NCBI GenBank assembly: GCA_951406725.2
Contig: OX597814.1
Location: forward strand, 194,308,001-194,372,000
Direction of reading: 5' to 3'
Length of the DNA: 64,000 bases
Source: Octopus vulgaris
Lineage: Eukaryota
The notes under the pieces are model-generated. The model ran no database searches. It worked only from the letters and a program-made list of their open reading frames with translations, and was not told where the DNA came from. A program made the translations under genes and the position numbers. Positions 8,843 to 49,150 of the stretch are shown here, piece by piece. How positions within the stretch are numbered: the first letter of the stretch is position 1; each line of letters opens with the position of its first letter.

Positions 8843-9240
8843 TCTTTTACTCTTTTACTTGTTTCAGTCATTTGACTGTGGCCATGCTGGAGCACAACCT
8901 TTATTCGAGCAAATCGACCCCAAGACTTATTCTTTGTAAGCCTAGTACTTATTCAATCTGTCTCTTTTGCCGAACCACTAATTTACAGGAACGTAAACAC
9001 ACCAGCATCGGTTGTCAAGCGATGTTGTGGGGTACAAACACAGACACACAAACACACACACATATACATATATACGAAGGGCTTCTTTCAGTTTCCATCT
9101 ACCAAATCTACTCACAAGGCTTTGGATGACCCGAGGCTATAGTAGAAGACACTTGCCCAAGGATCCACACAGTGGGACTGAACCCAGAACCATGTGGTTG
9201 GTAAGCAAGCTACTTACCACACAGCCACTCCTACGCCTAT
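8843..9240 (-). mobile_element. SINE family 1 (abuts the U6 3' end)
   Basis: Full-length reverse copy; its head begins right after the U6 oligo-T. Confidence 0.85.
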
Positions 9241-9335
9241 AAAAAATATGGAACGCTTCACGAATGTGCGTGTCATCCTTGCGCAGGGGCCATGCTAATC
9301 TCTGTATCATTCCAATTTTAGAATATGTACCACCG
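9241..9335 (-). pseudogene. U6: U6 snRNA retro-pseudogene (5'-truncated, 3-nt deletion after the ACAGAGA box)
   Basis: Reverse complement: ACATATTCTAAAATTGGAATGATACAGAGATTAGCATGGCCCCTGCGCAAGGATGACACGCACATTCGTGAAGCGTTCCATATTTTTT, nearly identical to metazoan U6. The upstream flank is LTR sequence, not a PSE/TATA promoter. Confidence 0.93.
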
Positions 9336-9849
9336 TTGTTGAAGATATTTGAAGTCTTGGCTTTTCCTTTGACAAATAATTTAATGTAAGGGATGAGACC
9401 TGCACCCCTCAAGTGTTACAGATCTTTCATCCTTGTTACAGGACTGAGACCTTTGGAGATATGCTGTGATTGAGAAGACCCGGCAAGTAAAATGAGATCG
9501 CAGCTGTGGCCAATACCAGTGTCACATAACCAGCCTGTTTAAAAGTATCCTTGAATCACCAGGCGAAATGCTGTGCTTGAGAAGACCTGTTGAGTCAAGT
9601 GAAATCGTAGTTGCAGCTGATGCCAGTGTTGCTTGACTGACTCCCTGAGCAAGTGGCACATAAAAAGCACCATCCGAACGTGGTTGATGCTAGTGCCACC
9701 TGATGGGCTCCAATGTTGATGGCACATAAAAAGCACCCACTATACCCTTAGAGTGGTTGGCGTTAGGAAGGGCATCCAGCTGTAGAAACCTTGCCAGATC
9801 AGATTGGAGCCTGGTGCAGCTTCCTGGCTTGCCAGACCCCGGTCGAAAC

Positions 9850-15130: not shown

Positions 15131-17056
<1,926 letters not shown>

Positions 17057-21913: not shown

Positions 21914-22051
21914 ACACAAAACAAGAACTTTCAATGACAAACTGAACAAGACTCTTTTTTTATATATATAAATAAATATTTATTTCTCCAAGTAGACCAC
22001 AAATTTATAAATGAGTTGAAGGGTTTGTTTTACCTTAAAAGAAATATTGAA

Positions 22052-22680
22052 ATTCTTCTTGTAGTAGACCTAATATTACTGGACCATGACTTATTTATAT
22101 AATTATTAATTATTATTATTACAAAAGAAATAATTATACAATATAAAATAAAAATAATTATATAAAACGAATCATAATTTAAAAAATAAAATAAATCAAT
22201 TATTCATCATTAATATTATTAAGGTAGTAAGTTTGACAAAATTGTTAGCAGCCAGGTGAATTAAATTCATGTAGTAGACCTAATATTACTGGACCATGAC
22301 TTATTTATATAATTATTAACATTACAAAAGAAATAATTATACAATATAAAATAAAAATAATTATATAAAACGAATCATAATTTAAAAAAAACAAAAACAA
22401 AATCAATTATTCATCATTAATATTATTAAGGTAGTAAGTTTGACAAAATTGCTAGCAGCCAGGTGAATTAAATTCTTCATGTAGTAGACCTAATATTACT
22501 GGGTCTTATTTATATAATTATTAATTATTATTATTGCAGAAGAAATAATTATACAATATAAAATAAAATTAAAATTTATATAAAACAAATTTTTTTTAAA
22601 AAATAAAAGAAATCAATTATTCATCATTAATATTATTGAGGTAGTAAGGTGACAAAACTGTTAACAGCCAGGTGAAATGC
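22052..22680 (+). repeat. Three tandem 210-bp AT-rich units, running into a SINE family 2 copy (~22640-22850)
   Basis: GTAGTAGACCTAATATTACTGG recurs at 22061, 22271 and 22481. Confidence 0.9.
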
Positions 22681-23257: not shown

Positions 23258-23789
23258 GATACTGGAAAACATCAATGCATGAGACCAATACGCATGAGGG
23301 GATATGATGTTGTCATGAGGAGCTAAAAATAACAGCTAAATAGCCCTTACGATATTGGAAAACATCAATGCATCAGATACGCATGAGGAGATATGATGTT
23401 GTCGTGAGGAGCTAAAAATAACAGCTAAATAGCCCTTACGATATTGGAAAACATCAATGCATCAGATACACATGAGGGGATATGATGTCGTGAGGAGCTA
23501 AAAATAACAGCTAAATAGCCCTTACGATATTGGAAAACATCAATGCATCAGATACGCATGAGGGGATATGATGTTGCCGTGAGGAGCTAAAAATAACAGC
23601 TAAATAGCCCTTACGATATTGGAAAACATCAATGCATCAGATACACATGAGGGGATATGATGTCGTGAGGAGCTAAAAATAACAGCTAAATAGCCCTTAC
23701 GATATTGGAAAACATCAATGCATCAGACCGACACACATGAGGGGATATGATGTCGTGAGGAGCTAAAAATAACAGCTAAATAGCCCTTA
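23258..23789 (+). repeat. Minisatellite, six copies of an ~86-93 bp unit
   Basis: GATATTGGAAAACATCAATGCAT...GAGGAGCTAAAAATAACAGCTAAATAGCCCTTAC at 23258, 23351, 23440, 23526, 23615 and 23701. Confidence 0.92.
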
Positions 23790-26339: not shown

Positions 26340-27425
26340 AGTATTTTAAAAATTCAATGTTTTATACAATTCATGAAAGTGGAGAGAAGCTTTTAAGAAA
26401 GTCGCTCCTGTACAGCACAGCAAAGGGAGCGGTTTATTGCTTTTACTGTACTTTGATGTTAAACCAATGTGACAAGTTTTCCAACAAGGAAGGTGTTAAT
26501 GATTAGAAAAACACAGAGGAGAAAATGAAAACATGAACAAATTCAAGGTCACAGAGATTCTGTGAAGTTCAAACTTTTATGTTGGTAATCTTATGTTATG
26601 TTAAGGAGTTGGAAAAACAAGTCCAAGAAAACAAGAAATAATGGATTGAAGTATTGTGCCAAGTTGTGGCTGTGACAATACTTCTAGCTGAGAGAGGTCT
26701 GGCATTTAGAAGTAACAAAGATATAATAAGCTCTAAACGCAATGGGAAGATCCAGACCTTCATCAACAAATGCCTCCAGCAGATCCTCCATTTGAAGCGG
26801 TTCGACAGTGCCAAACTCAAACCTGTCACATTTGAGGGTTCTTTCCGCAGTCTGTGTCCGATCCATCTCCATTTCCTTCGTCTAATCTGAACATGTATGG
26901 GCTCCTGGTTGGCCCTTTCCCACAGGTTGGTGTTTGGCACTCTGTCGAACCACTTCAGATGGAGGATCTGCTGGAGGCATTTGTTGAAGGTCTGGATCTT
27001 CCCATTGCGTTTAGAGCTTATTATATCTTCGCTACTTCTAAATGCCAGACCTCTCTCAGCTAGAAATATTGTCACAGCCACAACTTGGCACAATACTTCA
27101 ATCCATTATTTCTTGGATGGATCGGATACAGACTGCAGAAAGAACCCTCAAATGTGATACGACAAGCACTTGACTGGAACCCGCAGGGGAAAAAGAAGCG
27201 AGGATACCCGAAGCCGACATGGAAGCGGAGCATTTTGGACGAGCTCAGGACCACCGGCCTGACATGGGAAGCAACCAAGAAACACGCCAATAACCGCAAA
27301 TAGTGGAAAACAACTGTTGAGGCCTTATGTTCCACAAGGGGCAAAAAGGATTAAGAAGAAGAAGAAATGCAATAGGAATTTTCTAAGAATAATGCAACTT
27401 CTAGCACAATTTGATTCATTTCAAT
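26340..27425 (+). mobile_element. hAT (ZMYM1/DUF4371-type) transposase relic interrupted by an RTE-like LINE 3' fragment and a local inversion
   Basis: LLYSTAKGAVYCFYC and VVAVTILLAERGLAFR motifs, resuming at ~27370 (NFL..MQLLAQFD). LINE peptide [38 protein letters not shown] with (GAA)n tail. Confidence 0.65.
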
Positions 27426-32760: not shown

Positions 32761-32865
32761 AGAGATTTAGAAATTTAGTATTTCTGATTTTGATAACCAG
32801 TGAATAGACTTCACTGAAATTTAGATATATACATTACGAGTCAAGACAAATATCACCAGCTGACC
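32761..32865 (+). repeat. Retrozyme-like unit S0 (3' part), ending in target site ATCACCAGCTGACC
   Basis: Nearly identical to the 3' ends of units 34511-34871 and 38532-38886. Confidence 0.8.
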
Positions 32866-34510
32866 GCTTTTTTTTGTTGTTTGGTGTCGGATATTTTTGA
32901 TTGCGTTGTTGTTGTGTCGCAATTGTGAGTTCGAATTCGTTGGTGGAAGCAGTTGCAGTGTGGTGAAGTTTTTGGAGGTTTTTTTCTCGAAAATACAAAC
33001 CCAAACGTACGCAGGAGCAGCAGGCAGGGGCCTGGCTGCGAGTGAACTACAGTTGGAAGAAGTTATCATCGAGAAGGAGATTTTGAAGAAATATTTCGAC
33101 AGCTTGAAGAAGGAGGGTGACTGTGTGAGGGTCACACCGCCTGAAGAAGAAGTGAAAGAAGCAGAGAAACGTAATATAACATACAGAACGTGGAACGTGG
33201 CTTCGAAGAAAATAGAAGTGGCAGCGATAGAGGAAATTGAGTGGTGTCTGCAAGGAATTGAAGGAGAAACTGCCTTCTACAACAGAGGTAGAAAATGTGC
33301 AACGGTGGTCGTTCATTTTAAAAACGAAGACAAAGCAAAGAAGAATGCCACGAAAATACTGAAAACAGAAAAATGGATGTTATTACCAAGCTATTGCAGA
33401 AAGGGGGCAGTAAGAATACGGATCAGTAAAATTTCACCAGAGATGAACATGGAAAGAATTTTGGCGGCAGTGGTATTCAACTGCAAAGAGAGCGTTGAAA
33501 TATTGAAAGTGGAAAAATCGAAAGATGTACAGTGGTGGGGTTATGCGGTGCAGGCTTTGGTTCATATAACTATGCCAGACCTGTACAACATCCCAGAGGA
33601 GTTGGTGTTCCCCGACGAGACATGTCTCAGACTCGTGGTAGAAGGGAGACACCCAGTGTGCTACACATGTAAAATTAGAGGCTACATGAAGAATGTGTGT
33701 CCGACGAGAACATTGGAGCCTCGGACAGATATATTGCAAATGGCGGATGTAGAAGAAGAATGTGTGAACACAGAAAATGTGGAAAGTGGTGACGAGTTGG
33801 AGAAAGAAAAGGAAAGAACAGAAGGAAAAGATAGAAAGAGAGCGAGGGTGGAATCACCACCTAAAGTTCAAAAAAAGAAAAAGCTCCCAAAAAAGACAAC
33901 AGACGAAATGGAAGATCGAACGTACGAAGAGAGAGATGCAAAAGCGAAAGCGAGAGAACCGGCAAATTTAACGGCAGACCAAGAACGGGAAAGAAGAGTG
34001 GAAGAGAAGTTAAAAGTATGTAAGGAAGGAGGAAGACCCGAAGGGAAAAATCTTAAAGTAGTAATATTGTATATGAAAGACAAAGAAATCGAAAAGAGGC
34101 TGGCAGGTAAAAAAGGATTAATCAGGGTTAGGTTGAACCCAAAAATATTTGATGACCAAGTGAAGTCGGCGGTCGTAGAGAAAGAGACATTTATGAAATT
34201 GAAAAGTGTGTTTTCGACTGTTTGTGAAATGCAATATATCCGTTACGACAGTTTGCCAGCGATTGTAGACCAGGAGAGGTTAATAGAATACATTACAGAT
34301 GAACGCCCAGCATAGCAGAATTGTATTTAAATGAAACTGCGAGTTTTGGGGGGCTCGTAAGCCGTTCCATTTCATTCATTACAAATAATTCATTTTCATA
34401 TCATATTTTTCGATTTTTTTTTATTATTTGTACCCCATGTCCTGTATTGTAATGTCCCCTCTTAATTCGGACCATTGTGCCTATAATAAAGATTTAATGA
34501 CCAGCTGACC
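32866..34510 (+). mobile_element. ORF1-only L1/Tx1-type retroelement E1 (subfamily A1), including 3' target duplication
   Basis: T-rich 5' UTR, single ORF1, 3' UTR with hairpin TGCGAGT-TTTGGG-GGCTCGTA and AATAAA; flanked by ATCACCAGCTGACC / ATGACCAGCTGACC. Confidence 0.8.
32993..34315 (+). pseudogene. ORF1 (gag-like, RRM-like region + zinc knuckle); frame open but probably decayed
   Basis: Aligns with the 34989 and 39000 ORFs, but the start position is ATA (ATG in paralogues) and the knuckle reads CYTCKIRGYMKNVC (His to Tyr). Confidence 0.7.
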
Positions 34511-34871
34511 AGTGTCTGCTAGTCTAGGCCGACGAAGGACAATCATCCTGAAACATGTGACCCTAGATGTAGCCCGGGCGGCCAGGGGTGTTTGTCTCCC
34601 CTTCGAAAATGTAGATAAGGACACAGGAAAAATGTGTCAAAGCCATCAGGAGGCGTCGATGCTTCCTAGGGCTATACAGCAGTGGTGTACCCCCCTACTG
34701 TCACGTTCATGTTAGATTGACAGTATACAACCATTCTATCGCCCCACCACCGTACATGTCTCTACGAGAGATTTAGAAATTTAGTATTTCTGATTTTGAT
34801 AATCAGTGAATAGACTTCACTGAAATTTAGATATATACATTACGAGTTGAGACAAATATCACCAGCCGACC
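34511..34871 (+). ncRNA. Retrozyme-like unit S1 (~361 bp) with degenerate type I hammerhead (34518-34573)
   Basis: TCTAGG-CCGACGA-AGGA-caatca-TCCT-GAAA-CATGTGAC-CCTAGA; long-range complementarity of 34576-34616 with 34835-34871. Confidence 0.65.
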
Positions 34872-36388
34872 TATTTTTTTTGGAGTCGTTATTCTGGTGT
34901 GTTTGTTTTGAGTGCGTCATTGTGAAGAGGTTGTGAGTTCGAGTTCGTTGCTGGAGGACGTGGTGAATTTTATTTGGAGATTTTGAAAATGCAAGACCAG
35001 ACGTATGCGAGAGCAGCAGGCAGAGGCCTGGTTGCGAGTGAACTAGAAATGGAAGAAGTGGTAGTCGAGAAGAAAACTTTGGAAAGATATTTCGACAGTT
35101 TGAAGACGGAGGGTGACTGCGTGAGAGTCACACCGTCCGAAGAAGAAAAAAACGCGGAGAAACGTATGATAACATACAGGACATGGAGTGTGGCATCAAG
35201 AAAAATAGAAGTGGCAGAGACGGAGGAAATAGAGAAATGTCTGCAAGGAATTGAGGGTGAACTTACCTTTTTCAACAGAGGAAGAAAATATGCCACAGTG
35301 GTTGTACACTTTAAAAATGAAAATGAAGCGAGAAGGAATGCGACAAAAATTCTGAAATCTGAAAGTTGGACATTATTACCTAGTTACTGCGGAAAGAGGG
35401 CAGTCAGAATAAGAATTAGTAGGATTTCGCCCGAACTTAACATGGAGAGGATACTAGCAGCAGTAGTTTTCAACTGCAAGGAAAGTGTGGAGATGTTGAA
35501 GGTGGAAAAGTCAACAGAAGTTAAGTGGTGGGGATATGCGGTGCAGGTTCTGGCACATATAACCGTGCCAGACCTGTACAACATCCCGGAGGAGTTGGTC
35601 TTCCCTGATGAGACACGACTTAGAGCCGTGGTAGAGGGAAGGCCCCCAGTTTGTTATAATTGCAAAATAAGAGGACACATGAAGGATGTGTGCCCGCTGG
35701 AGAAAACGATAGCACCGGAGGCTGTAACGAAGGAGTGGAAAGATACGTGTGTGGAGGAGGGAGAAGTGCAGGAGAAAGCGATAGCATTGGAGGCTCGAAC
35801 AGAGGAGCAGCTAGTTGAGGATGTGGAGGAAGAATGTGCAAGTGCAGAGGATGAAAGAACAGAAGATAGAAAGAGAACAAGGGTGGAATCACCACCGAAA
35901 GTTCTAAAAACATTCGTGTTGTATGTCAAAGACACAGAAATGGAAAAAAGACTTGCAGGTAGGAAAGGATTGATCAGGGTTAAGATGCACCCAAAACTGC
36001 ATGGTGACGATGTGAAAGGGGTAGTTGTAGAAAAAGAGACATTTACAAAATTGAAAAGTATGTTTAATAATGTTTATGTAGCGCAATATATACGTTATGA
36101 CAATTTGCCAAATGTGATAGAACAGATGGAATTGATAGAGTATATTACGGACGAACGTCCAATATAAGAGAACTGAAATATATGTAATTATAAAATTGTA
36201 AAATTGTATTTTAAATGAAACTGCGAGTTTTGGGAGGCTCGTAAGCCGTTCCATCCAACTCATTACACATAATTCATCTTCATTTCATATTTTATTTTTT
36301 ACTTTATGTACCCCACGTCCTGTGTTGTAATGTCCCCTCCACATTCGGGCCATCGTGCCCATAATAAAGATATAATCACTAGCTGACC
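34872..36388 (+). mobile_element. ORF1-only retroelement E2 (subfamily A2), including 3' target duplication
   Basis: Same layout and 3' UTR as E1; flanked by ATCACCAGCCGACC / ATCACTAGCTGACC. Confidence 0.8.
34989..36167 (+). CDS. Non-LTR ORF1 protein with CCHC zinc knuckle (61-codon in-frame deletion relative to 39000-40361)
   Basis: ATG at 34989, N-terminal TYARAA, VEGRPPVCYNCKIRGHMKDVC (CX2CX4HX4C). Confidence 0.8.
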   Translation: MQDQTYARAAGRGLVASELEMEEVVVEKKTLERYFDSLKTEGDCVRVTPSEEEKNAEKRMITYRTWSVASRKIEVAETEEIEKCLQGIEGELTFFNRGRKYATVVVHFKNENEARRNATKILKSESWTLLPSYCGKRAVRIRISRISPELNMERILAAVVFNCKESVEMLKVEKSTEVKWWGYAVQVLAHITVPDLYNIPEELVFPDETRLRAVVEGRPPVCYNCKIRGHMKDVCPLEKTIAPEAVTKEWKDTCVEEGEVQEKAIALEARTEEQLVEDVEEECASAEDERTEDRKRTRVESPPKVLKTFVLYVKDTEMEKRLAGRKGLIRVKMHPKLHGDDVKGVVVEKETFTKLKSMFNNVYVAQYIRYDNLPNVIEQMELIEYITDERPI

Positions 36389-38246
36389 GCTTTTAAAAAA
36401 ATTTTCCTCGGAGTATATCAAATAATTTTCTGTTGCTGCAAATCGTTGTGTGAGTTCGTTTCTGTTTGTCTCCTTTGTTGTGTGTTACACGTATAATAAT
36501 TGTTGAACTGTTTTTGACCCAGTAATTTTTGTCCTTCGGGGTAGAAAATTTCTGTGTGTTTTTTTTGTGTGAACTCTTAACCTGTATAGGTTATTTTGAA
36601 AAATTCTTTTGTCATTTGTGACAAGTTCTTCGTTGTCTAATATGGAATTAGACTTAAGGTCTAAAAAAGACTTTCCCGAGATAGGAGAAAGTACAACTGT
36701 TGTTAAACAGAAGGAAACACAGGCAAAACCCAGTATTTCAGACGCCGTAGGCGGCGAAGTGGAAGATTCAATGGAAAAACTATTCAAGTTCAGACCGCTT
36801 AAGCAAAAAAGTGGTGAAGAAACACGATTGGTACCGCCCCCTGAGACTATACAGGCAATACGGGAAAAAATGGTCACCTATAAGGTGTACAATATAAAAG
36901 AAAAACGAATGACCGAAGTAAAATGATCGAAAAGTGTATGGCACCAATATGGAGCAAAGTTTGTCATGTCAACCGAGGTGCAAGAAGCGCAACAGTGGAG
37001 GCGCATTTTGAGACGGCGGAAGAAGCAAGGCAAATTTCGACGCAAATGTTGAAAAACGAGAATATTATACTGCTACCCTTATATTTGGGGTGCAGAACAG
37101 CAAAAGTGACACTGGAAGACATACCAAGGGGCTATGATGTGATGTGGGCAGCAACAGCGGTCATTTTTGATGTTGAAATCAAAATTGACAATTTTGAGTA
37201 TGAAGAGGAAAATAGCAAAACACTGGAGAGACCAGCAGCTGGAGATGACTATCCAGAGGGGAAAATGCGATGCTGGAAAGCCTACCAGACAGAGTCTTCG
37301 TGGGGGAGGGGCACTCCATACGAGTTTCGGTGGAAGGACGCAGGCCCAGATGTTTTAAGTGCGGGCAAAAGGGGCCACGTTCGCTCCGTTTGCACAAAGA
37401 AAAATAATACGGGCAATGCCCCTCCCCCTCAAAACGCTGTGAAGAACGCAGAAAGCAGCAAAGTGGAGAACAAAGTAATGACTGGTGAAAGCAAGGAAGA
37501 AAAAAAAAACAGGTCGAACTCCAAAAAGAAGGAAGAAAAGAACTGAATGCAAGAATGAGAAAGGAAAGGAGGAGGAAATTAATACAACAAAAACAAATAT
37601 ACAAGAAGAAGGGATGGAATTCACGAACGTGTCGAACAAAAGGAGAAAATCCATCAACCCTGACTCCCCACCTGTAACAAAAAAAAAAAAAAAACGCAGA
37701 CGAACAAATTAAAAAAATTCTCCAATCCCACCACGCTGGTACTACATTTATAGGCCAACATTTTAACAAACCCCACTCCCCATCTGTAAAAAGGTTTAAA
37801 CCCAATGAAAAATGTATAGCATACACCACAAAGAACGAGAGAGTAGTAACATATGTGAAAGCAAATACGCAGATCAAGTGCTACAAAGCGACCGAGAGGG
37901 ATGCGGAGTGGCGATATGCAAGGGTCAGCGAAGAAGAATGGAAAGGAAGAATCGTCCAAGAACACATAAAAGCCGGCTTCATTAAGGATGTCACCCAGGA
38001 GGTGACAACTGTGAAATTATACGTCAGCCTGGCAGCCACACCAACCCAGAGCCCGGTGGCAACGCCGGTGAAACGCCCAGCAGCAACGGCGAGAGTGGGG
38101 GAGACAGGCAGAAGGAATCTGTCAGGCGCCCTCTCGCAACCGTAAGTAAATAATTTTCCTTTTTGCGATGATTAAGTTAGGTTGTATAAATGTGCGTGGA
38201 ACGGGGTCAAAATGGAAACAGGCCTGTTTTCTGGACGACCTCATTT
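36389..38246 (+). mobile_element. L1/Tx1-type element E3 (family B): frameshifted ORF1 and first ~26 codons of ORF2, cut by a duplication breakpoint
   Basis: Begins right after the duplicated target; knuckle VEGRRPRCF.CG..GHVRSVC across frameshifts; ATGATTAAGTTAGGTTGTATAAATGTGCGTGGA at 38168. Confidence 0.75.
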
Positions 38247-38531
38247 GTGAAATGCAATATATCCGTTACGACAGTTTGCCAGTGATTGTAGACCAGGAGA
38301 GGTTAATAGAATACATTACAGATGAACGCCCGGCGTAGCAGAATTATATTTAAATGAAACTGCGAGTTTTGGGGGGCTCGTAAGCCGTTCCATTTCATTC
38401 AATACAAATAATTCATGTTCATATCATATTTTTCAATTTTTTTATTATTTGTACCCCATGTCCTGTATTGTAATGTCCCCTCTTAATTCGGGCCATTGTG
38501 CTTATAATAAAGATTTAATCACCAGCTGACC
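38247..38531 (+). mobile_element. Duplicated 3' end of E1 (ORF1 tail + 3' UTR + target site)
   Basis: Near-identical to 34224-34510; joined to E3 through TTT microhomology (38244-38246). Confidence 0.85.
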
Positions 38532-38886
38532 GTTGTCTGCTAGTCTAGGCCGACGAAGGACAATCATCCTGAAACACATGTCCCTAGATGCAGCCCGGGC
38601 GGCCGGAGGTGTTTGTCTCCCCTTCGTAAATGTATACAAGGACACAGGAAAAATGTGTCAAAGCCATCAGGAGGCGTCGATGCTTCCTAGGGCTATACAG
38701 CAGTGGTGTACCCCCCTACTGTCACGTTCATTTTAGATTGACAGTATACAACCATTCTATCGCCCCACCACCGTACATGTCTCTACGAGAGATTTTTAGT
38801 ATTTCTGATTTTGATAATCAGTGAATAGACTTCACTGAAATTTAGATATATACATTACGAGTCGAGACAAATATCACCAGCCGACC
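38532..38886 (+). ncRNA. Retrozyme-like unit S2 (~355 bp) with type I hammerhead (38539-38594), predicted cleavage after GUC at 38582
   Basis: TCTAGG-CCGACGA-AGGA-caatca-TCCT-GAAA-CACATGTC-CCTAGA. GGGCGGCCGGAGGTGTTTGTCTC pairs with GAGACAAATATCACCAGCCGACC; TCGTAAATGTATA pairs with TATACATTACGA. Confidence 0.7.
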
Positions 38887-40589
38887 TATTTTTTTTTTGG
38901 AGTCGTTATTCTGGTGTCGTTTTGAGTGCGTTATTTGTGTGACAAGTTTGCGAGTTCGTTGCTGGAGGACGTGGTGAATTTTATTTGGAGATTTTGAAAA
39001 TGCAAGACCAGACGTATGCGAGAGCAGCAGGCAGAGGCCTGGTTGCAAGTGAACTAGAAATGGAAGAAGTGGTAGTCGAGAAGAAAACTTTGGAAAGATA
39101 TTTCGACAGTTTGAAGACGGAGGGTGACTGCGTGAGAGTCACACCGTCCGAAGAAGAAAAAAACGCGGAGAAACGTATGATAACATACAGGACATGGAGT
39201 GTGGCGTCAAGAAAAATAGAAGTGGCAGAGACGGAGGAAATAGAGAAATGTCTGCAAGGAATTGAGGGTGAACCTACCTTTTTCAACAGAGGAAGAAAAT
39301 ATGCCACAGTGGTTGTACACTTTAAAAATGAAAATGAAGCAAGAAAGAATGCGACAAAAATTCTGAAATCTGAAAGTTGGACATTATTACCTAGTTACTG
39401 CGGAAAGAGGGCAGTCAGAATAAGAATTAGTAGGATTTCGCCCGAACTTAACATGGAGAGGATACTAGCAGCAGTAGTTTTCAACTGCAAGGAAAGTGTG
39501 GAGGTGTTGAAGGTGGAAAAGTCAACAGAAGTTAAGTGGTGGGGATATGCGGTGCAGGTTCTGGCACATATAACCGTGCCAGACCTGTACAACATCCCGG
39601 AGGAGTTGGTCTTCCCTGATGAGACACGACTTAGAGCCGTGGTAGAGGGAAGGCCCCCAGTTTGTTATAATTGCAAAATAAGAGGACACATGAAGGATGT
39701 GTGCCCGCTGGAGAAAACGATAGCACCGGAGGCTGTAACGAAGGAGTGGAAAGATACGTGTGTGGAGGAGGGAGAAGTGCAGGAGAAAGCGATAGCATTG
39801 GAGGCTCGAACGGAGGAGCAGCTAGTTGAGGATGTGGAGGAAGAATGTGCAAGTGCAGAGGATGAAAGAACAGAAGATAGAAAGAGAACAAGGGTGGAAT
39901 CACCACCGAAAGCTCTAAAAAAGAAAAGAATCAAAAGCAAGACAACAGAAGAAAAAGAAGAGCGAACGTGCAAAGAAAAGGACGTAAAAGAGAAGGCGAG
40001 AGAGCAGACAATGACAGAGGTAAACCTAGAATGGAAAACAAAAGTGAGAGAGCAGTTGGATGCTTGTAAAAAGGGAAGAAGACCTGTAGGAAAAAACCTG
40101 AAAGCATTCGTGTTGTATGTCAAAGACACAGAAATGGAAAAAAGACTTGCAGGTAGGAAAGGATTGATCAGGGTTAAGATACACCCAAAACTGCATGGTG
40201 ACGATGTGAAAGGGGTAGTTGTAGAAAAAGAGACATTTACAAAATTGAAAAGTATGTTTGATGATGTTTATGTAGCGCAATATATACGTTATGACAATTT
40301 GCCAAGTGTGATAGACCAGATGGAGTTGATAGAGTATATGACGGACGAACGTCCAATATAAAAGAACTGGAATATATGTAATTATAAAATTGTAAATTGT
40401 AAAATTGTATTTTAAATGAAACTGCGAGTTTTGGGAGGCTCGTAAGCCGTTCCATCCAACCCATTACACAAAATTCATCTTCATTTCATATTTTATTTTT
40501 TACTTTATGTACCCCACGTCCTGTGTTGTAATGTCCCCTCTACATTCGGGCCATCGTGCCCATAATAAAGATATAATCACCAGCTGACC
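38887..40589 (+). mobile_element. ORF1-only retroelement E4 (subfamily A2), including 3' target duplication
   Basis: Duplicate of E2 with full-length ORF; flanked by ATCACCAGCCGACC / ATCACCAGCTGACC. Confidence 0.82.
39000..40361 (+). CDS. Intact non-LTR ORF1 protein (453 aa from ATG) with CCHC knuckle, charged linker and conserved C-terminal domain
   Basis: Open frame; CYNCKIRGHMKDVC; C-terminus YIRYDNLP.VIDQMELIEY.TDERP is shared with E1. Confidence 0.82.
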   Translation: MQDQTYARAAGRGLVASELEMEEVVVEKKTLERYFDSLKTEGDCVRVTPSEEEKNAEKRMITYRTWSVASRKIEVAETEEIEKCLQGIEGEPTFFNRGRKYATVVVHFKNENEARKNATKILKSESWTLLPSYCGKRAVRIRISRISPELNMERILAAVVFNCKESVEVLKVEKSTEVKWWGYAVQVLAHITVPDLYNIPEELVFPDETRLRAVVEGRPPVCYNCKIRGHMKDVCPLEKTIAPEAVTKEWKDTCVEEGEVQEKAIALEARTEEQLVEDVEEECASAEDERTEDRKRTRVESPPKALKKKRIKSKTTEEKEERTCKEKDVKEKAREQTMTEVNLEWKTKVREQLDACKKGRRPVGKNLKAFVLYVKDTEMEKRLAGRKGLIRVKIHPKLHGDDVKGVVVEKETFTKLKSMFDDVYVAQYIRYDNLPSVIDQMELIEYMTDERPI

Positions 40590-42872
40590 ACCTTTCTTTT
40601 AATTTTTCCTCGGAGTATATCAAATAACTTTCTGTTGCTGCAAATCGTTGTGTGAGTTCGATTCCGTTTGTCTCCTTTGTTGTGTGTTAAACGTATAATA
40701 ATTGTTGAACTGTTTTTGACCCAGTAATTTTCACCCTTCGGGGTAGAAAATTTCTGTGTGTTTTTTTTGTGTGAACTCTTAACCTGCATAGGTTATTTTG
40801 AAAAATTCTTTTGTCATTTGTGACAAGTTCTTCGTTGTCTAATATGGAATTAGACTTAAGGTCTAAAAAAGACTTTCCCGAGATAGGAGAAAGTACAACA
40901 ACTGTTGTTAAACAGAAGGAAACACAGGCAAAACCCAGTATTTCAGATGCCGTAGGCAGCGAAGTGGAAGATTCAATGGAAAAACTATTCAAGTTCAGAC
41001 CGCTTAAGCAAAAAAGTGGTGAAGAAACACGATTGGTACCGCCCCCTGAGACTATACAGGCAATACGGGAAAATGGTCACCTATAAGGTGTACAATATAA
41101 AAGAAAAACGAATGACCGACGTAAAATGATCGAAAAGTGTATGGCACCAATATGGAGCAAAGTTTGTCATGTCAACCGAGGTGCAAGAAGCGCAACAGTG
41201 GAGGCGCATTTTGAGACGGCGGAAGAAGCAAGGCAAATTTCGACGCAAACGTTGAAAAACGAGAATATTATACTGCTACCCTTATATTTGGGGTGCAGAA
41301 CAGCAAAAGTGACACTGGAGGACATACCAAGGGGCTACAATGTGATGTGGGTGGCAACAGCGGTCATTTTTGATGTTGAAATCAAAATTGACAATTTTGA
41401 GTATGAAGAGGAAAATAGCAAAACACTGGAGAGGCCAGCAGCTGGAGATGACTATCCAGAGGGGAAAATGTGATGCTGGAAAGCCTACCAGACAGAGTCT
41501 TCGTGGGGGAGGGGCACTCCATACGAGTTTCGGTGGAAGGACACAGGCCCAGATGTTTTAAGTGCGGGCAAAAGGGCCACGTTCGCTCCGTTTGCACAAA
41601 GAAAAATAATACGGGCAACGCCCCACCCCCTCAAAACGCTGTGAAGAACGAGAGAGCAGCAAAGTGGAGAACAAAGTAATGACTGGCGAAAGCAAGGAAG
41701 AAAAAAAAAAACAGGTCGAACTCCAAAAAGGAGGAAGAAAAGAACGGAATGCAAGAATGAGAAAGGAAAGGAGGAGGAAATTAATACAACAAAAACAAAT
41801 ATACAAGAAGAAGGGATGGAATTCACGAACGGGTCGAACAAAAGGAAAAAAATCCATCACCCCTGACTCCCCACCCGTAACAAAAAAAAAACGCAGACGA
41901 ACAAATTAAAAAAATTCTCCAATCCCACCACGCTGGTACTACATTTATAGGCCAACATTTTAACAAACCCCACTCCCCATCTGTAAAAAGGTTTAAACCC
42001 AATGAAAAATGTATAGCATACACCACAAAGAACGAGAGAGTAGTAACATATGTGAAAGCAAATACGCAGATCAAGTGCTACAAAGCGACCGAGAGGGATG
42101 CGGAGTGGCGATATGCAAGGGTCAGCGAAGAAGAATGGAAAAGAAACGTCGCCCAAGAACACATAAAAGCCGGCTTCATTAAGGATGTCACCCAGGAGGT
42201 GACAACTGGGAAATTATACGTCAGCCTGGCAGTCACACCAACCCAGAGCCCGGTGGCAACGCCGGTGAAACGCCCAGCAGCAACGGCAAGAGTGGGGGAG
42301 ACAGGCAGAAGGAATCTGTCAGGCTCCCCCTTGCAACTGTGAGTAAATAATTTTCCTTTTTTTTTTCGATGATTAAGTTAGGTTGTATAAATGTGCGTGG
42401 AATGGGGTCGAAATGGAAACAGGCTTGTTTTCTGGACGACCTCATTTCACATAGAATCGATGTAGCTATTGTCAGCGAGTCCAAGATGAAAGGACCCCAA
42501 GCGTTCTCACCACTTCTCAATGGTTACGAGAAATTTATTTCTCCTAGCCGGGGGGGGGGGGGGGGTGCAGGCGTGGCAGTCCCTTTCAGGAAGAACTTGG
42601 ACTTACAGGTAAGTACTGTCTTTCTGGACCCAGAAGGTAGGCTGGTTGTCCTAGATGTGACTCACGTGAGTAAGCAGTCCTTCAGGTTGGTGGCTGTTTA
42701 CGCTCCTAATGGGCGTGGGCAGACCGGTTTTTATCGGGAACTGGATAGGAAAGGGAATCCTGGCCTCAAGGCTCTACTAGCGAGCTTTAATCTAGTAGAC
42801 CGTTTTCGACTGGATGAGCCGAACGTTCCACAGTGGACGTGGAGTAACAACAACGGCTCACGCAGATCATAC
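40590..42872 (+). mobile_element. L1/Tx1-type element E5 (family B): frameshifted ORF1 and APE endonuclease part of ORF2, 3'-truncated
   Basis: CFKCGQKGHVRSVC knuckle; ORF2 from 42369 reads CINVRG...IVSES...GVAV...DPEGRLVVLD...LVAVYAPN...WTWSN. The GDFN segment is missing (deletion). Confidence 0.82.
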
Positions 42873-44300
42873 ATAGTTGTATGGTATGTTGTACCATATA
42901 TAATTACGTAATTTCCTGTTTCTGCCCCTATTCCCTCTTATATGATCGGTGTTACTCTCGTCGGAAGGGTTTTCATTACCTACTATTCTTATTGGTTCGA
43001 CTTCTTTCTATAAGTTGCTTAGTCCTGTTAGAAATTAAATTAGAATTTGCATTAGCTTGAACTGTGTTATTACCTTTATTTAGTCAAATTTGTTTAGATC
43101 TTAAATGAGTAGCTCTGGAATTTGGAGTTCGTTTATAAGGGGGAGTTTTACAGTTGACGGGTGTTCCTGGTGGTTCTACATAGGATATTCTCTGGGTATA
43201 CCCAGCACTAGAGAGGGCCTGGTTGTAGTGATGTGCGTAATCATTGAATATATTCTTGTTGGAGGATAGCTTAGTAAGTCTGTCTGAGATGGCTTGGACC
43301 GTGGTGTTAATTATACAGGGTGGGTGGTTGGAAGAGGTGCTAATGAATCTAGTTGTTTCTTCGGGTTTCCTATATGGGTAGTGAAGGTGCTTGTCTAACG
43401 TAACATCTAAGAAGTTTACTATTTTCATATTAGTCATGAATTCTAGTTTTAGATTGAAAGATTTGAAGAATAGTCTGATCTTTTTTCTAATTCTTTCTAG
43501 TTTACTCTTATTATTAGTGGGGTACAAGAAGAGAGCGTCATCTCTGTAGAGACCCCCCTGTAGGTCCGGTACCTCCGAGAATAGCCCCGACCAAGTCAGT
43601 CACCTGAGCTGAATCGCTCGAGCCCATAGCCACATCGAAGTTTTCGGGGGTATCGGATCTGGTCCAAAGTTTACCGTCAAATTCTATTATAGTTTTTCTG
43701 GCTAAGAGTATAATGTCAATCTTTTCCCTGTCTATAAGCGAAAGGTTGCGGGCATATATAAGGGATTTGTTAAGTAAGATGGGGGATATACTGGCGTAGT
43801 AGTTAGCTATGTCAAACTGAATAAACGAGTAATTGGATCTCTTATTGATTGTGTTAAACCACTCCAGCACATCGTCGGTGTTAACCCATAAGTGGAGTGG
43901 GATGTGGGGTTTGATGCGTGGGATCACCTTGTCTAGAATATTTTTACTGAGCATGCCTATATCCGATTTAGTCGGACAAATTAACCTTACTCCTACGTTT
44001 TCCGGGAAATTTTTCTTGTAGTCCTTGATGCTGATTTTAGGTTCCTGAGGTTTAATTGGTTCCGTCCTATCTAGAAGGTCCAATTTTGTCATTACTTCCG
44101 GGTTGTCAAAATGGTAGGCCGCCCACCTAATTCTTCTAATAAAGTCCGTAGTCTGGTGGATGAGGGTCGTCATGTATGCTTTATCGGTGTGAAGAGGTAT
44201 GTCCTTGGGAGAGAAATTGGTGTTAATCCTTTGTATCGTCATTTTTGAGTTTTTCAAGTACTAAAGGTTGTCGAGGTTATATAGGATCCAATCCAGGTGA
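42872..44300 (-). mobile_element. Penelope-like element (Naiad-like RT), deleted and frameshifted
   Basis: FIRRIRWAAYHF, RLICPTKSDIG, FIQFDIANYYASI, FDVAMGSSDSAQVTDLVG, LYRDD, VNFLDVTLD, SNHPP, RNYIWYNIPY. Confidence 0.8.
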
Positions 44301-44306
44301 CAATAT

Positions 44307-47300
44307 AAAGCTTTATGAAAATAAACAAAAGACGGAGGCAGGTGGAGTACAAACAACAATTGTATTAGTATGGCGCTCAGGAATATAAATAAAACAAGTC
44401 TTTTACGTTTCGAGCCTACGCTCTTCAACAGAAAGATACACAGAAAAGAAACACGGAGAGAAACAAGGAGAGAAAAAAAATGCGTGCAGAAGCTAGCGAA
44501 TCAACATGGCGAACTGATTCTGGCCAGAAGTCAGAGATCAAACGTGAGACGCAAGAGTGAAAATAGGGGAGATAACAGGGTCAAATGACTTCGCCCCAAC
44601 ATAAGGGTGCGTGTGTGTATGAGGGAGTATGTGGTGCGTATGAAAGGTCTGGACGTGTGTATGTATGTATGTATGTATGTATGTATGATGTGATGTGTAA
44701 TGTCGTATGGTGTAGTGTAGAGAGGGGAGATGAGGGGGAGAGTGAGAGAGAGTGGAGGAGAGGGGGGTGATATGAGGGGGAGAGGGGAGGAGGGAAGAGG
44801 GGAGAAGGAAAGAGAGAGAAGAGGAAAGGTGAGAGTGAGGAGGGTGATATGAGGGGGGAGGAAAGAAAGAGGGGTGAGGGTGAGATGAGAGGGGGAAAAG
44901 GAAAAAGAGGAGGGAGGAGGAGGGGATGGGGAGAGGGAAGGAGAGGAGAAGAGGAGGGGGATGGGAAAGGAGGGGAGAGGAGGAGGGGGTGAGAGAGAAG
45001 GGGAGTGAGGGAGCAGAGAGAAGGAGAAGAGGGAAGAAGAGGAAAGAGGAGGGAAAGAGAGCAAGGGTGATAAGATGAAGGACCGAAGAGAAGGAGTCGG
45101 GGGGGGGAGGTTAGATGAGGAGCAGGGAAGAGTTGAGATCAAATGGCGTAAAAGAGCGAAGAGAGAAGATTAATCCCTGTTCACGGCACAAACGGGAATC
45201 CAGATGGCCTCTGTGCAAGGACAAACCGAACACAGACAGGTGTTGCAAGGAGTGACCGGTGGAGCGGAAATGGCGTGAGACCGGTGTGTCGTTGGCAAGG
45301 CAGATGTCACGGAAGTGTTCCACGAACCGGTCAGCCAAGCGGCGTCCCGTTTGTCCGATATACAGAGAATGGCAGAGAGAGCAAGAGATGCAATAGATGA
45401 TATTACTGGAGGTGCGGGTGAAGGAGTTGATGATGCGATAGGGTCAATGATGGGTGCCAGTGAGGAGGGCGGTGTTGGAGAGGTAGGGGCAAGTGTGGCA
45501 ATGTGCGCGGGAGCAGGGGAACGAGCCAGGTTGGGAGGTAGGGTCAGGAAAGGAGCTGTGGACCAAAAGGTCTCGTAGGTTATGGGCTCGTTTGAAGGAG
45601 GGGAGGGGTGGTTAGGGAAGAGGTGTGAAGTGGACAGGTCAGACTGGAGATGCCGGAAAGCTCGAAGAATGGTGCGTTGGAGAGGTAGGGTCGTGGGGTG
45701 GTGAGGGGAAAAGGGAGGCGGGAGACTACCGGGCGGGTTCGGGGGGAGAGAGCAGATTTACGGTCTACGGAACATGCTCTGGCAAGGGCGGTGTGGATAG
45801 TGGTGAGGGGGTATCCACGTAGGATGAAGTGGCGAGCCATGCGTTGAGACTGAGTCTCAAAGTCATGGTCATCACTACAGAGCCTACGTAGACGGAGGAA
45901 TTGGGAATAGGGGATGGAAAGCTTGGTGTGTTTTGGGTGGGAGGAAGAGAAGTTTAGGTATGAGTGTGCGTGTGTGTTTGTAGTGAATGGAGGTGGTAAG
46001 AGTGGAGTGATGAATGCTGACCGAAATGTCGAGGAAGGAGACAGAGGTGTTGGAGATAGTGGAGGGCAGGATGGAAGGATTGAACGAAAGAGAGGAAGGA
46101 ATCTAGATATTCACGGGAGAGTGAGGTGGCACCGATAATGTCATCAATGTAACGACCGTATAGTTCGGGAGTGGGACCAGTGAAATTAGAGAATATTTGG
46201 GCCTCAACATAGCCAACGAACAGGTTCGCATAGTTGGGGCCCATTCGCGTTCCCATGGCCACTCCCGAGACCTATTGGTAGAACTCGCCCGCAAACGAGA
46301 AGCAGTTAAGAGAAAGGACAAGTTCGGCCAGACGAATGAGTGTGGAGGTGTCGGGTTCGGGGTTGGGGTGGAGGTCAAGAAAGTGTTGAAGTGCATGCAG
46401 TCCTTCGTGGTGAGGGATGACGGTATAGAGAATCTGGATGTCCATTGTAAAAGTATTTTGGAGGAGCCGGGAGGAAAGGAGAAAGAGTTGAACAGCCGGA
46501 GAGCATGGTTGGTGTCATGGATGTTGGAGGGAAGAGACGCCACTAGAGGGGCAAGGACACGGTCGAGGTATTTTGAGATGAGCTCCGTGGGGCAGTTGCA
46601 GGCGGAGACAATGGGGTGGCCAGGGTTGTTGGGTTTGTGGATTTTGGGGAGGAAGTAAATGGTGGGGGTGCATGGGGTTCGCACAATTAGGTTGGATGCG
46701 GTGTGGGGGAGACGGGAGGACGAGATGAGGTCGTGGACAGTAGAGGATACCGTCTGTTGGTAGCTACGTGTGGGGTTAGAGGACAGAGGGGAGTAGAAGG
46801 AGGTGTCATTGAGTTGGCGGAGAGCCTCGGCCCTGTAGAGGTCCGCATGCCACACCACCACAGCTCCACCCTTGTCAGCCGGTTTGATGATAATGTCAGT
46901 GCGCCGTTGGAGGGAACGAAGAGCCGAGAGCTCGGTCGGAGAGATGTTGAGGCGGCGGTGGCGCCTGGAGAAGTTGAACCGCTCCAACGCACGCTGACAG
47001 GCGCCCGCGAAATGATCAACCACTAGGAACTGGCCGGGGGCCGGCGTCCACGGGGATGGTCGGCGGCCCAGGTCAGTGAAGCAGTCCTCCTCGTTGGATG
47101 CGGGTGGTCGGTCGCGGAAAAACACACCCAACCAGACGTGGCGCACAAAGCTGTGGACATCAACTCGCGTCTGGAATTCCTTACAGGATGGAGTGAGGAG
47201 GATGAAACGCAGACCCCTACCAAGGACGGAGCGTTCCGCTGCAGAGAGGGGAAGATTAGGGGGAATGGTAACAACAGACGGAAGTGGAGAAGGGGTGGGT

Positions 47301-49150
47301 GGAATAGAAGTACGAGGGGTGGATGGAATAGAAGTACGAGGGGTGGATGGAATGGGAGGAGTAGGAGGGGTGGTAGGGCTGGTGGAGGTCTGAGGGGTGG
47401 TAGGGCTGGTGGAGGTCTGAGGGGGAGGGATTGGGGAGGTGTTGGGAGGGACAGTGGGGTTAAGTGTGGGCGGGTGGAGCCTATCAGGAGGGGAGAAGGG
47501 TAGTGGAGGAGTTGGGGTGGTGGCATCGTGTGTGGTGGAATAGAGGAGTGATTGGAGTTTAAGAAGTTTGGTATTGGAAAGAAATTGATGGAAGAGGTGA
47601 TTCAAATGGATAATGAAGCATAGCGTGTTTGGAGCATGGAAAGGCGGCAGAGAGGAGAAAAATGTGGAAAAAGCAGGAGGGAGGAGGCAGTCGATGGTAT
47701 GTAGTTTAGAGAGATTGGAGCGAATAGTGGCCCGCATAAGGCGGCAAGATGTGGTGCGGAGTATGGGTAAGATGGAAGAAGCCGAGTGGAGAGCAGGGTG
47801 GAAATGGAGGCAGAAACCTTTAGGGATGAGTCGGTGATGTAGGCAGCGGCTTAGAAAAGAGACGTGGCTAGAGAAGCGGGTTTTTTTAAAAAGAAGCAGA
47901 GAGAGATTAATGGACGGCTGAAAGCAGTTTGGAGGGAGTAGGCGGAGGTAATCTTTCAAACGGTGGTGGATAGTGAGGAGGTAAAATTTGTAATCCGGCA
48001 TGGTGGAATAGTGAAAAAAAAGGAGAAAAAAAAGAGAAAGAAAAGGGGGAAAAAAAACAAACGTTCGAAAAAAACAAAAAACAAACGTTCGAAAAAAAAC
48101 TAGATAAAAAAGGCAGTAGGGGCAGAAAATAAAGGCGGAGAAGATGGGACAAATGGAAAAAGGAAAGAAAGGAAGCAGAGAGAGGGGGAGGCAAAAAAAG
48201 GGGGTGCAGGGAGAGGAAACAGAGTATGGACATCCAGAGAAGAAGGAAACGACAGGAGGAGGACAAAAAATGCAGGAAATTGTGGAAAGTATGAAATGAA
48301 TGTAAAAAAAGATAATATAAGAGAAAATAAAATAAAACGAACGGGACAGTTTATACGAACAAGTTGAGAGTTCAAGGTAAAAAATGTTTAGACGTCGTGG
48401 TATATTTTTTAAGGATTTCACATCAATAACCAAGTCACTTTGATCCGTGAAGGAGAGGTGCGGCCGGTGGTAAGTATCCAAGAGGTGAAGAAAATCCAAT
48501 GCAGAGGTACTAGTTGATAGTGGTGTTGGTAGAATATAGGATGAAAGTGAGACCACGTGAGCGCGTAATATATAACGGGAAGCTTTATGAAAATAAACAA
48601 AAGACGGAGGCAGGTGGAGTACAAACAAACAATTGTATTAGTATGGCGCTCAGAAATATAAATAAAACAAGTCTTTTACATTTCGAGCCTATGCTCTTCA
48701 ACAGAAAGATACACAGAAAAGAAACACGGAGAGAAACAAGGAGAGAAAAAAAATGCGTGCAGAAGCTAAGGATTCAACATGGCGAACTGATTCTGGCCAG
48801 AAGTCAGAGATCAAACGTGAGACGCAAGAGCGAAAATAGGAGAGATAACAGGGTCAAATGACTTCGCCCCAACATAAGGGTGCGTGTGTGTATGAGGGAG
48901 TATGTGGTGCGTATGAAAGGTCTGGACGTGTGTATGTACGATGTGATGTGTAATGTCGTATGGTGTAGTGTAGAGAGGGGAAATGAGGGGGAGAGTGAGA
49001 GAGTGGAGGGGAGATGAGGGGGAGAAGGAAAGAGGAGGGAGGAGAGGAAAGGTGAGTGAGGAGGGTGAGATGAGGGTGAGGGGGAGATGAGAGGGGGGAA
49101 GGGGGAGAAGGAAAGAGAAGAGGGAGGAGGAGGGGGATGGGAAAGGAGGG
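44307..49150 (-). mobile_element. Penelope-like element with direct terminal repeats (pLTRs ~44307-44760 and ~48579-49010), RT + GIY-YIG, frameshifted
   Basis: ORF from ATG ~48001: IKPADKGGAVVV, YFLPKIHKPNNPG.PIVS, AMGTRMGPNYANLFVG, RYIDD; GIY-YIG region IYCISC...YIGQTGRRLADRFVEH at ~45150-45440; ~450 bp repeats at both ends. Confidence 0.9.

Follow-up and report, generated by a model that had tools for sequence, protein, structure and literature searches.

A non-LTR hammerhead retrozyme family of Octopus vulgaris with a variant C4 core, a Penelope-type insertion footprint and a LINE at its predicted transcription start

A unit of about 360 nt in the genome of Octopus vulgaris carries a hammerhead-like motif that differs from the consensus at one core position. 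Does it belong to a family of mobile non-coding retrozymes and, if so, how is its ribozyme used and how do its copies spread? A sequence-only reading had proposed a non-LTR retrozyme giving circular RNA, and had taken the C at core position U4 as a possible sign of inactivity. The window, that is, the whole stretch of DNA analysed here, comprises 64,000 nt (assembly GCA_951406725.2, contig OX597814.1, positions 194,308,001-194,372,000, forward strand). The unit under study, copy S2, lies in an array with the following features.

32761..32865, + strand: 5'-truncated retrozyme piece at the start of the array, with the putative promoter part and the target site
32866..34510, + strand: ORF1-only cassette A, with a 483-aa frame; AATAAA and a target duplication at its end
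34511..34871, + strand: retrozyme copy S1, with a GAC cleavage triplet; likely dead
34872..36388, + strand: ORF1-only cassette B, internally deleted, with a CCHC knuckle
36389..38517, + strand: deleted LINE C (ORF1 and the start of ORF2), fused at ~38244 to an A-type 3' end
38518..38531, + strand: target duplication of 14 bp that closes the cassette upstream of S2 on its 3' side, identical to the last 14 nt of the unit
38532..38886, + strand: copy S2, a retrozyme unit of 355 nt, against a family majority of 364 nt
38544..38588, + strand: type I hammerhead of S2 (stem I, C4 core, stem II, GAAA, short stem III)
38749..38809, + strand: two points, near 38760 and 38809 (positions 231 and 286 of the majority sequence), at which genomic insertions preferentially end on the 3' side
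38817..38823, + strand: ATCAGTG, predicted PSE of S2, 56 nt ahead of the LINE target site
38873..38886, + strand: LINE target site and duplication in S2, forming the 3' arm of the basal rod; its first base is the predicted transcription start
38887..40589, + strand: ORF1-only cassette B, with a 472-aa frame, a CCHC knuckle and a target duplication
40590..42870, + strand: LINE C, 3'-truncated (ORF1 plus a portion of the APE endonuclease)

The window contains the terminal 14-mer of the unit seven times; each occurrence borders an insert, either an ORF1-only cassette (A or B) or a deleted copy of LINE C. At this locus the units are separated by inserts and not arranged head to tail. The ORF1 of the cassette B located at 38887..40589 shares 33% identity over 93 aa with that of LINE C, of which full-length copies (~5.5 kb) were found elsewhere in the genome. 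Two blocks of ~4 kb each, 34221-38246 containing S1 and 38244-42447 containing S2, are ~96% identical and, judged by this identity, are a local tandem duplication. Further repeats of the window, at 15132-17054, 22050-22676, 23258-23789 and 26632-27115, are a (TA)n-like array of 1.9 kb, tandem repeats of 210 bp and 89 bp, and a self-inverted element of ~480 bp.

In S2, stem I pairs 38544-38549 with 38583-38588. It encloses the core CCGACGA (38550-38556; C3 C4 G5 A6 C7 G8 A9), a stem II of 4 bp with its loop (38557-38570), GAAA (38571-38574) and CACATGTC (38575-38582). The cleavage triplet is GUC and the cut is predicted between 38582 and 38583. Relative to the CUGANGA / GAAA / UH core, U4 is the single departure and the remaining core positions are kept. 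Internal hairpins span 38641-38659, 38669-38688, 38717-38746 and 38819-38837. Every motif and hairpin named in the sequence-only reading was found at its position, and the second copy, S1, was located at 34511-34871 with the ribozyme pattern; it carries CATGTGAC. This pattern has two matches in the window and none in 100 shuffles. Helices I and II of 6 and 4 bp, together with a short palindromic helix III, make up the layout that an excerpt of PMC4209133 calls 'canonical' metazoan type I. The palindromic stem III of dimer type thus stands as proposed, but the label 'minimal' does not suit these helix lengths. At stem III the majority sequence of the family is ACACGTGT or ACACGGTGT. Compared with the family, S2 departs in the core and stem III by one G>A in the palindrome alone, while S1 has lost U16.1. 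A suggested origin of both stem III variants by CpG decay fits the family majority for the G>A of S2 and a C>T in S1, but the GAC of S1 requires an extra T>A transversion.

The S2 unit has a folding energy of -114.3 kcal/mol (z = -5.2; 0/100 shuffles equal it) and S1 has z = -4.7. The computed fold of S2 contains a hammerhead domain and a rod, the base of which joins the post-ribozyme sequence to the 3' end of the unit through about 20 bp over ~23 nt plus ~13 bp. Both the structured rod or branched form and the pairing of the two ends had been anticipated. An Rfam search gave no hammerhead in the S2 window copy at gathering and E-value thresholds, and no match for the ribozyme of a canonical-core sister family either. 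A family copy aligned end to end with RF00163 (Hammerhead_1) at 14.3 bits against a cut-off of 34. Because even the canonical-core sister is missed, Rfam is a poor test for these hammerheads.

In the genome to which the window belongs (2.8 Gb), 2,206 first-look candidates were found, a figure that is not a copy number, and 40 of them were scored. Full units in the best 30 loci measure 355-367 nt (22 units), with a majority length of 364 nt. The S2 unit contains no frame of at least 100 aa; the element is non-coding, with one type I hammerhead per unit, and its size falls within the ~150-400 nt expected of retrozymes. The 30 best loci yielded 62 parsed ribozymes, 61 of them with C at position 4. 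The expectation that CUGACGA would predominate genome-wide was contradicted, with U4 in 0/62 copies, whereas the parallel expectation for GUC was borne out: the triplet is GTC in 52 of the 54 copies in which it could be parsed, 8 being unparsed. The C at position 4 is thus a state of the family and not decay, so that the earlier reading was right about its presence and wrong to see possible damage in it.

Related families with a similar layout and an identical target site were reached by following LINE insertions. One of them has a canonical core, CTGA[T/G/C]GA in 36/39 matches, and since this sister keeps it, the canonical core is probably ancestral. Other sister families have a U3-G8 or U3-A8 core pair. 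An older C4 subfamily (about 80-91% identical) combines C4 with a change of the 2.1-1.1 pair from G-C to A-U and with a longer near-palindrome; its most diverged copy has U4. From the coexistence of C4 with the swapped pair, it follows that the fold evolved compensatorily after U4C arose. Copy-specific decay as the origin of U4C is ruled out, as C4 is found in 61/62 copies and persisted while stem I changed in this way. U4C may already figure among the PLE hammerhead variants treated by Lunse in 2017. According to excerpts of PMC3088659, U4C strongly lowers activity in vitro while viroid infectivity is still possible, and U3-A8 is a known natural variant that is active (section 8). In the flank of one locus (L028, about 1127-1201), a more distant hammerhead-like repeat was observed; its core reads TTGAAAA (U3-A8), and its similarity to a segment of the unit is 72%.

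Covariation was analysed in an alignment of 14 ribozymes from five sister families. Pairing is found in 95.7% of 277 alignment cells, compared with 23-50% in slid controls, and 14/20 pairs changed on both sides across the five families, which is the stem covariation that the sequence-only reading called for. The observed pairing was reached in 0/500 shuffles, a count that is not a probability because the 14 sequences are related. The core 3-8 pair is CG in 6 sequences, UG in 4 and UA in 4 and is paired in 14/14; G5, A6, A9, GAAA and the GUC site are invariant. The stem III palindrome differs from family to family (ACACGUGU, ACUAUAGU, ACUAGU, ACUGCAGU). Judged by these comparisons, the type I hammerhead fold, with three helices round the core and stem I open, is real. 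The minimum-energy fold of the homodimer is an exact double hammerhead in 3/7 ribozymes tested; in the other four, S2, S1 and two further ribozymes, it is not a clean double hammerhead. Sister-family covariation and genome-wide short tandems uphold the proposed non-LTR retrozyme with a dimer-type type I hammerhead, and we assign the family to the retrozymes with high confidence. Self-cleavage of the C4 family may well be measurable, and it is fairly plausible that cutting would be slow and dimer-dependent.

How the units reach new sites was examined in two samples. The first consists of 28 loci outside the window; the second, the least biased, consists of 25 loci found with a 121-nt internal query, 5 duplicates having been dropped. 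In the first sample, 15/28 loci have an adjacent inverted piece, 22/28 contact (TA)n, and the outer 3' ends fall at majority position ~231 or ~286 in 33/43 cases. Its main pieces span 0.8-2.8 units, which bears out the short genome-wide tandems that had been predicted. The second sample gives an inverted piece in 13/25 loci, 3' ends at the two sites in 37/38 and abutting (TA)n in 31/38, against a background (TA)n frequency of 3.9%. Insertions are 5'-truncated partial tandems, about half of them with an inverted 5' piece. Positions 231 and 286 would be the start sites of reverse transcription, as we infer from the insertion 3' ends. Excerpts of PMC8557442 describe the same layout for PLEs (partial tandems, inverted 5' copy, optional tail, (TA)n bias). 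For one PLE in vitro, the tail is explained by two internal RT starts, and ribozyme cleavage is dispensable for insertion, according to parts of PMC11167929. PLEs have been proposed as retrozyme mobilisers (PMC7229834; 10.64898/2026.07.22.740005, both in excerpt). The footprint strongly favours mobilisation of the Penelope type. Neither this footprint nor an snRNA-type promoter motif is named in the sequence-only reading, which touches on the insertion target in passing.

Two abundant PLE families are present in the genome (13,512 and 6,949 first-look candidates); among 60 loci of these families, no terminal repeat shared with the retrozyme was found. A PLE reverse transcriptase beside a sister retrozyme (L191/L198) was considered as a partner and rejected, being a decayed PLE with the retrozyme inserted inside it and no terminal repeat. 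The window itself holds pieces of two very abundant Penelope-like families on the minus strand at 43084-48637, one with a GIY-YIG frame at 45111-45443 and the other with an RT at 43084-44260. Other copies of these two families have minimal hammerhead-like motifs of their own after the ORF. One PLE family is clustered at G000:C30:19.9-21.1 Mb, with many copies tens of kb apart.

The 5' junctions bear on the template. In the second sample they are scattered, with 1/38 at the cleavage site; by hand count, 15/38 pieces extend well past the cleavage site and 9/38 past the predicted start. Because junctions are scattered and pieces cross the cleavage site, the template would be a circle or an uncut multimer and not a cut linear monomer. 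Moreover, with the putative promoter in the unit upstream, propagation by linear templates alone would cost one unit per round, and insertions of 2.2-2.8 units appear to favour a circle or template jumping. Units diverge by 2.9% within loci and 5.6% between loci, private variants are shared in 8/20 loci, and the nearest neighbour is in the same locus for 9/48 copies (5 ties), a set of identities with which circle and multimer templates agree alike.

A motif in the 3' part of the unit points to the origin of the transcript. ATCAGT is located 56-61 nt ahead of 23/25 U1 and 22/25 U2 loci, against a background of 0.2%; many of the loci counted belong to few clusters, and two of the U2 loci without the motif are interrupted by a LINE. 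The same motif is found 56-60 nt before the first base of the duplication in S2 as well as in seven sister copies, one of which departs from it by one change, and the CAGTGAA/TTCACTG hairpin overlaps it. An snRNA-type promoter has been reported for newt satellite 2 (PMC2220036, in excerpt). From motif and spacing, a PSE-like promoter with a start at the first base of the duplication is likely. In the window, a U6 snRNA on the minus strand (9242-9348; 90.4 bits, with a 3-nt deletion) adjoins a copy of a repeat, about 8843-9240, that is frequent in the window. It has no ATCAGT within 100 nt upstream and is possibly a retrocopy.

The predicted start is also where a LINE inserts. In its best 20 loci, LINE C starts at the retrozyme site in 15 (11 directly and 4 behind another insert) and at base 1 of U2 genes in 4, the remaining copy being truncated; more than 20% of its copies hence lie in one target, with duplications. 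Both ends and the duplication were found in 9/12 fetched copies, with the ends ~5.5 kb apart, and the duplications (~14 bp) match the local target variant. One copy has an intact 1134-aa ORF2 with an APE-RT-zinc finger organization (Pfam PF03372, PF00078, PF13966). With ORF1 followed by APE-RT-zf, the element falls in the L1 group, and the best PDB match of ORF2 is L1 ORF2. By resemblance we place LINE C tentatively in the Tx1 clade; no named Tx1 reference occurs among its 64 matches. The LINE is almost certainly site-specific for the retrozyme. Among the 30 best loci of cassette B, 25 rows are at the retrozyme site (four pairs of rows representing the same cluster) and 5 diverged rows are off it. 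Tx1 targets include other transposons, U2 and microsatellites, according to excerpts of PMC4494074, and the literature found on Tx1 with hammerhead, ribozyme or retrozyme gives, in the parts available, no account of such a target.

Several further insertions were observed around this site. In two copies (L129:6223-6416 and L130:6164-6357), LINE C sits at U2 base 1 with a 14-bp duplication and a retrozyme-like target remnant at its 5' end, which suggests a switch from retrozyme to U2. A further LINE-like family, starting at its 5' end with TGTCACTCG/TGACTCG, occupies the identical site of sister retrozymes (L088, L092, L095, L101, L103, L128). Diverged ORF1-only cassettes with a different 3' end are found in other targets (L054-L056, L058, L059); two lie behind a TATA-like stretch, which suggests that these too are at transcription starts. 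Locus L148 (G000:C20:24826178-24829455) shows an inverted retrozyme piece and a 5'-truncated cassette, then retrozyme sequence to 231 and (TA)n, with neither an upstream half nor a duplication. In L157 and L137, a 5'-truncated cassette or LINE is followed by retrozyme and the upstream half is absent. In these three loci LINE pieces were apparently carried by the retrozyme as cargo.

The explanation that we consider probable as a whole is a non-coding hammerhead retrozyme that has its own snRNA-type promoter, is cut slowly as a dimer and is pasted into (TA)n by Penelope enzymes. The PSE-like motif that a unit carries in its 3' part would drive transcription from 14 nt before the next unit. Two ribozymes would then pair through stem III and cut after GUC, at a rate reduced by U4C, and the cut monomers would be ligated into circles of ~364 nt. 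A Penelope RT/endonuclease would nick (TA)n and start cDNA from 231 or 286, running for 0.1-2.8 units, an outcome that would restore the promoter upstream of a ribozyme. Finally, the LINE would nick at the predicted start site and so borrow the promoter. A wider proposal is rather doubtful: the superfamily may have repeatedly fixed attenuating cores (U4C, U3-G8, U3-A8) while keeping the dimer-cleaving fold, cleavage being tuned so as to preserve circles or multimers as templates for Penelope. In this three-layer parasite system, the LINE would have captured the promoter and would switch between retrozyme and U2 almost unchanged, and the units would carry LINE pieces.

The ribozyme could instead be a relic: the element would spread as uncleaved linear multimers (or by template jumps) through the Penelope enzyme and form no circle, and the fold would be maintained to bind protein or to stabilise the RNA. 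C4 fixed in 61/62 copies, the U3-G8 sisters, the 15/38 insertion pieces that cross the cleavage site well without a pile-up there, and the dispensability of cleavage for PLE insertion in vitro (PMC11167929, in excerpt) all agree with this. Yet G5, A6, A9, GAAA and GUC do not vary in 14 sequences of five families, the 3-8 pair is kept in 14/14 and stem III stays palindromic with different letters; in addition, a linear route loses the promoter-bearing unit each round and insertions of 2.2-2.8 units nevertheless occur. We regard a relic as unlikely.

Two other explanations concern the LINE-derived inserts. If the units were pseudo-LTRs round an ORF1 cassette, the whole would be one composite passenger of Penelope type, in line with the layout of L148, with L157 and L137, which likewise have no upstream half, and with one cassette subfamily whose 5' duplication usually shows C in place of the T of the family. 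This is improbable: the cassette occurs in 0/25 retrozyme loci of the least biased sample and most loci are without it, the duplications match the local subfamily at both ends, and the same LINE inserts in U2 genes. Co-mobilisation of retrozyme and cassette does occur but is secondary. It is even less probable that the targeting LINE mobilises the retrozyme as a SINE-like partner, in spite of their close association and the existence of an intact ORF2. The retrozyme shares no 3' end with the LINE and has no 14-bp duplications, and it lands in (TA)n and carries inverted 3'-end pieces, none of which is seen in LINE insertions.

The octopus element is a genuine non-LTR retrozyme, of a known kind, distinguished by a variant core common to the whole family, by its Penelope footprint and by a LINE that inserts at its predicted start. 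The comparisons that follow refer to excerpts of the papers cited. Like metazoan non-LTR retrozymes (PMC7229834; 10.64898/2026.07.22.740005), it has a ~360-nt non-coding unit (350-390 bp in mussel) with one type I hammerhead, short tandems and dispersed copies, a branched rod, and abundant PLEs in the same genome. Unlike them, it has a family-wide U4C, has U3-G8 and U3-A8 sisters, serves as a site-specific LINE target and is known here from DNA. With the hammerheads of PLEs and their pseudo-LTRs (PMC4209133, PMC8557442, PMC11167929) it shares 5' truncation, partial tandems, an inverted 5' piece, two 3' ends (the tail), (TA)n targets and a palindromic helix III suited to dimers; it differs in having no ORF and a tail of 55 nt, against 30-40 in PLEs. 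Newt satellite 2 (PMC2220036) likewise is a hammerhead repeat with an snRNA-type promoter within the unit, but the octopus promoter is deduced from a motif shared with U1/U2 and not from transcription assays. The natural U4C hammerhead of a viroid (PMC3088659) has the same core change, with weak activity in vitro that is compatible with replication, whereas the octopus U4C is a fixed character of a dimer-type ribozyme in a genomic family with over a thousand loci. As for LINE C, it resembles Tx1-clade LINEs (Tx1 in Tx1D, Keno in U2, Tx1-Mar in Mariner-N4; PMC4494074) in its APE-RT, in using one site in another repeat, in its ~14-16-bp duplications, stacked insertions and non-autonomous riders, and in a U2 target. 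It is unlike them in that its target is a hammerhead retrozyme at the predicted transcription start and that near-identical copies use retrozymes and U2 base 1.

How animal retrozymes move and whether they need ribozyme cutting is a question that a clear Penelope footprint with two RT start sites addresses. With natural cores (canonical, U4C, U3-G8 and U3-A8) on one scaffold, each at many loci, the requirement for cleavage can be tested directly. A LINE that inserts at the predicted starts of retrozymes as well as of U2 genes gives a handle on target switching by site-specific LINEs.

At the level of RNA, assembled contigs of runs guessed to be RNA contain the unit and the joint 38877 -> 38523; tandem DNA or read-through gives the same joint, and no ends are visible. 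For the family, circles in vivo are only slightly more probable than not. Against ribozyme cutting speaks that only 1/9 Xenopus retrozyme dimers cleaved according to an excerpt of Li et al. 2026 (10.64898/2026.07.22.740005). Upstream of S2 is the 3' end of a cassette, without a promoter, and downstream is a LINE-derived cassette, without a second ribozyme; the only other family ribozyme in the window is S1, 4.0 kb upstream and with GAC. Because a cassette and not a second ribozyme follows, a unit-length circle of ~360 nt from S2 is unlikely. From this arrangement, S2 is likely a passenger between LINE-derived inserts that yields no unit circle, and the copy itself is probably inert. Its promoter motif points into cassette B.
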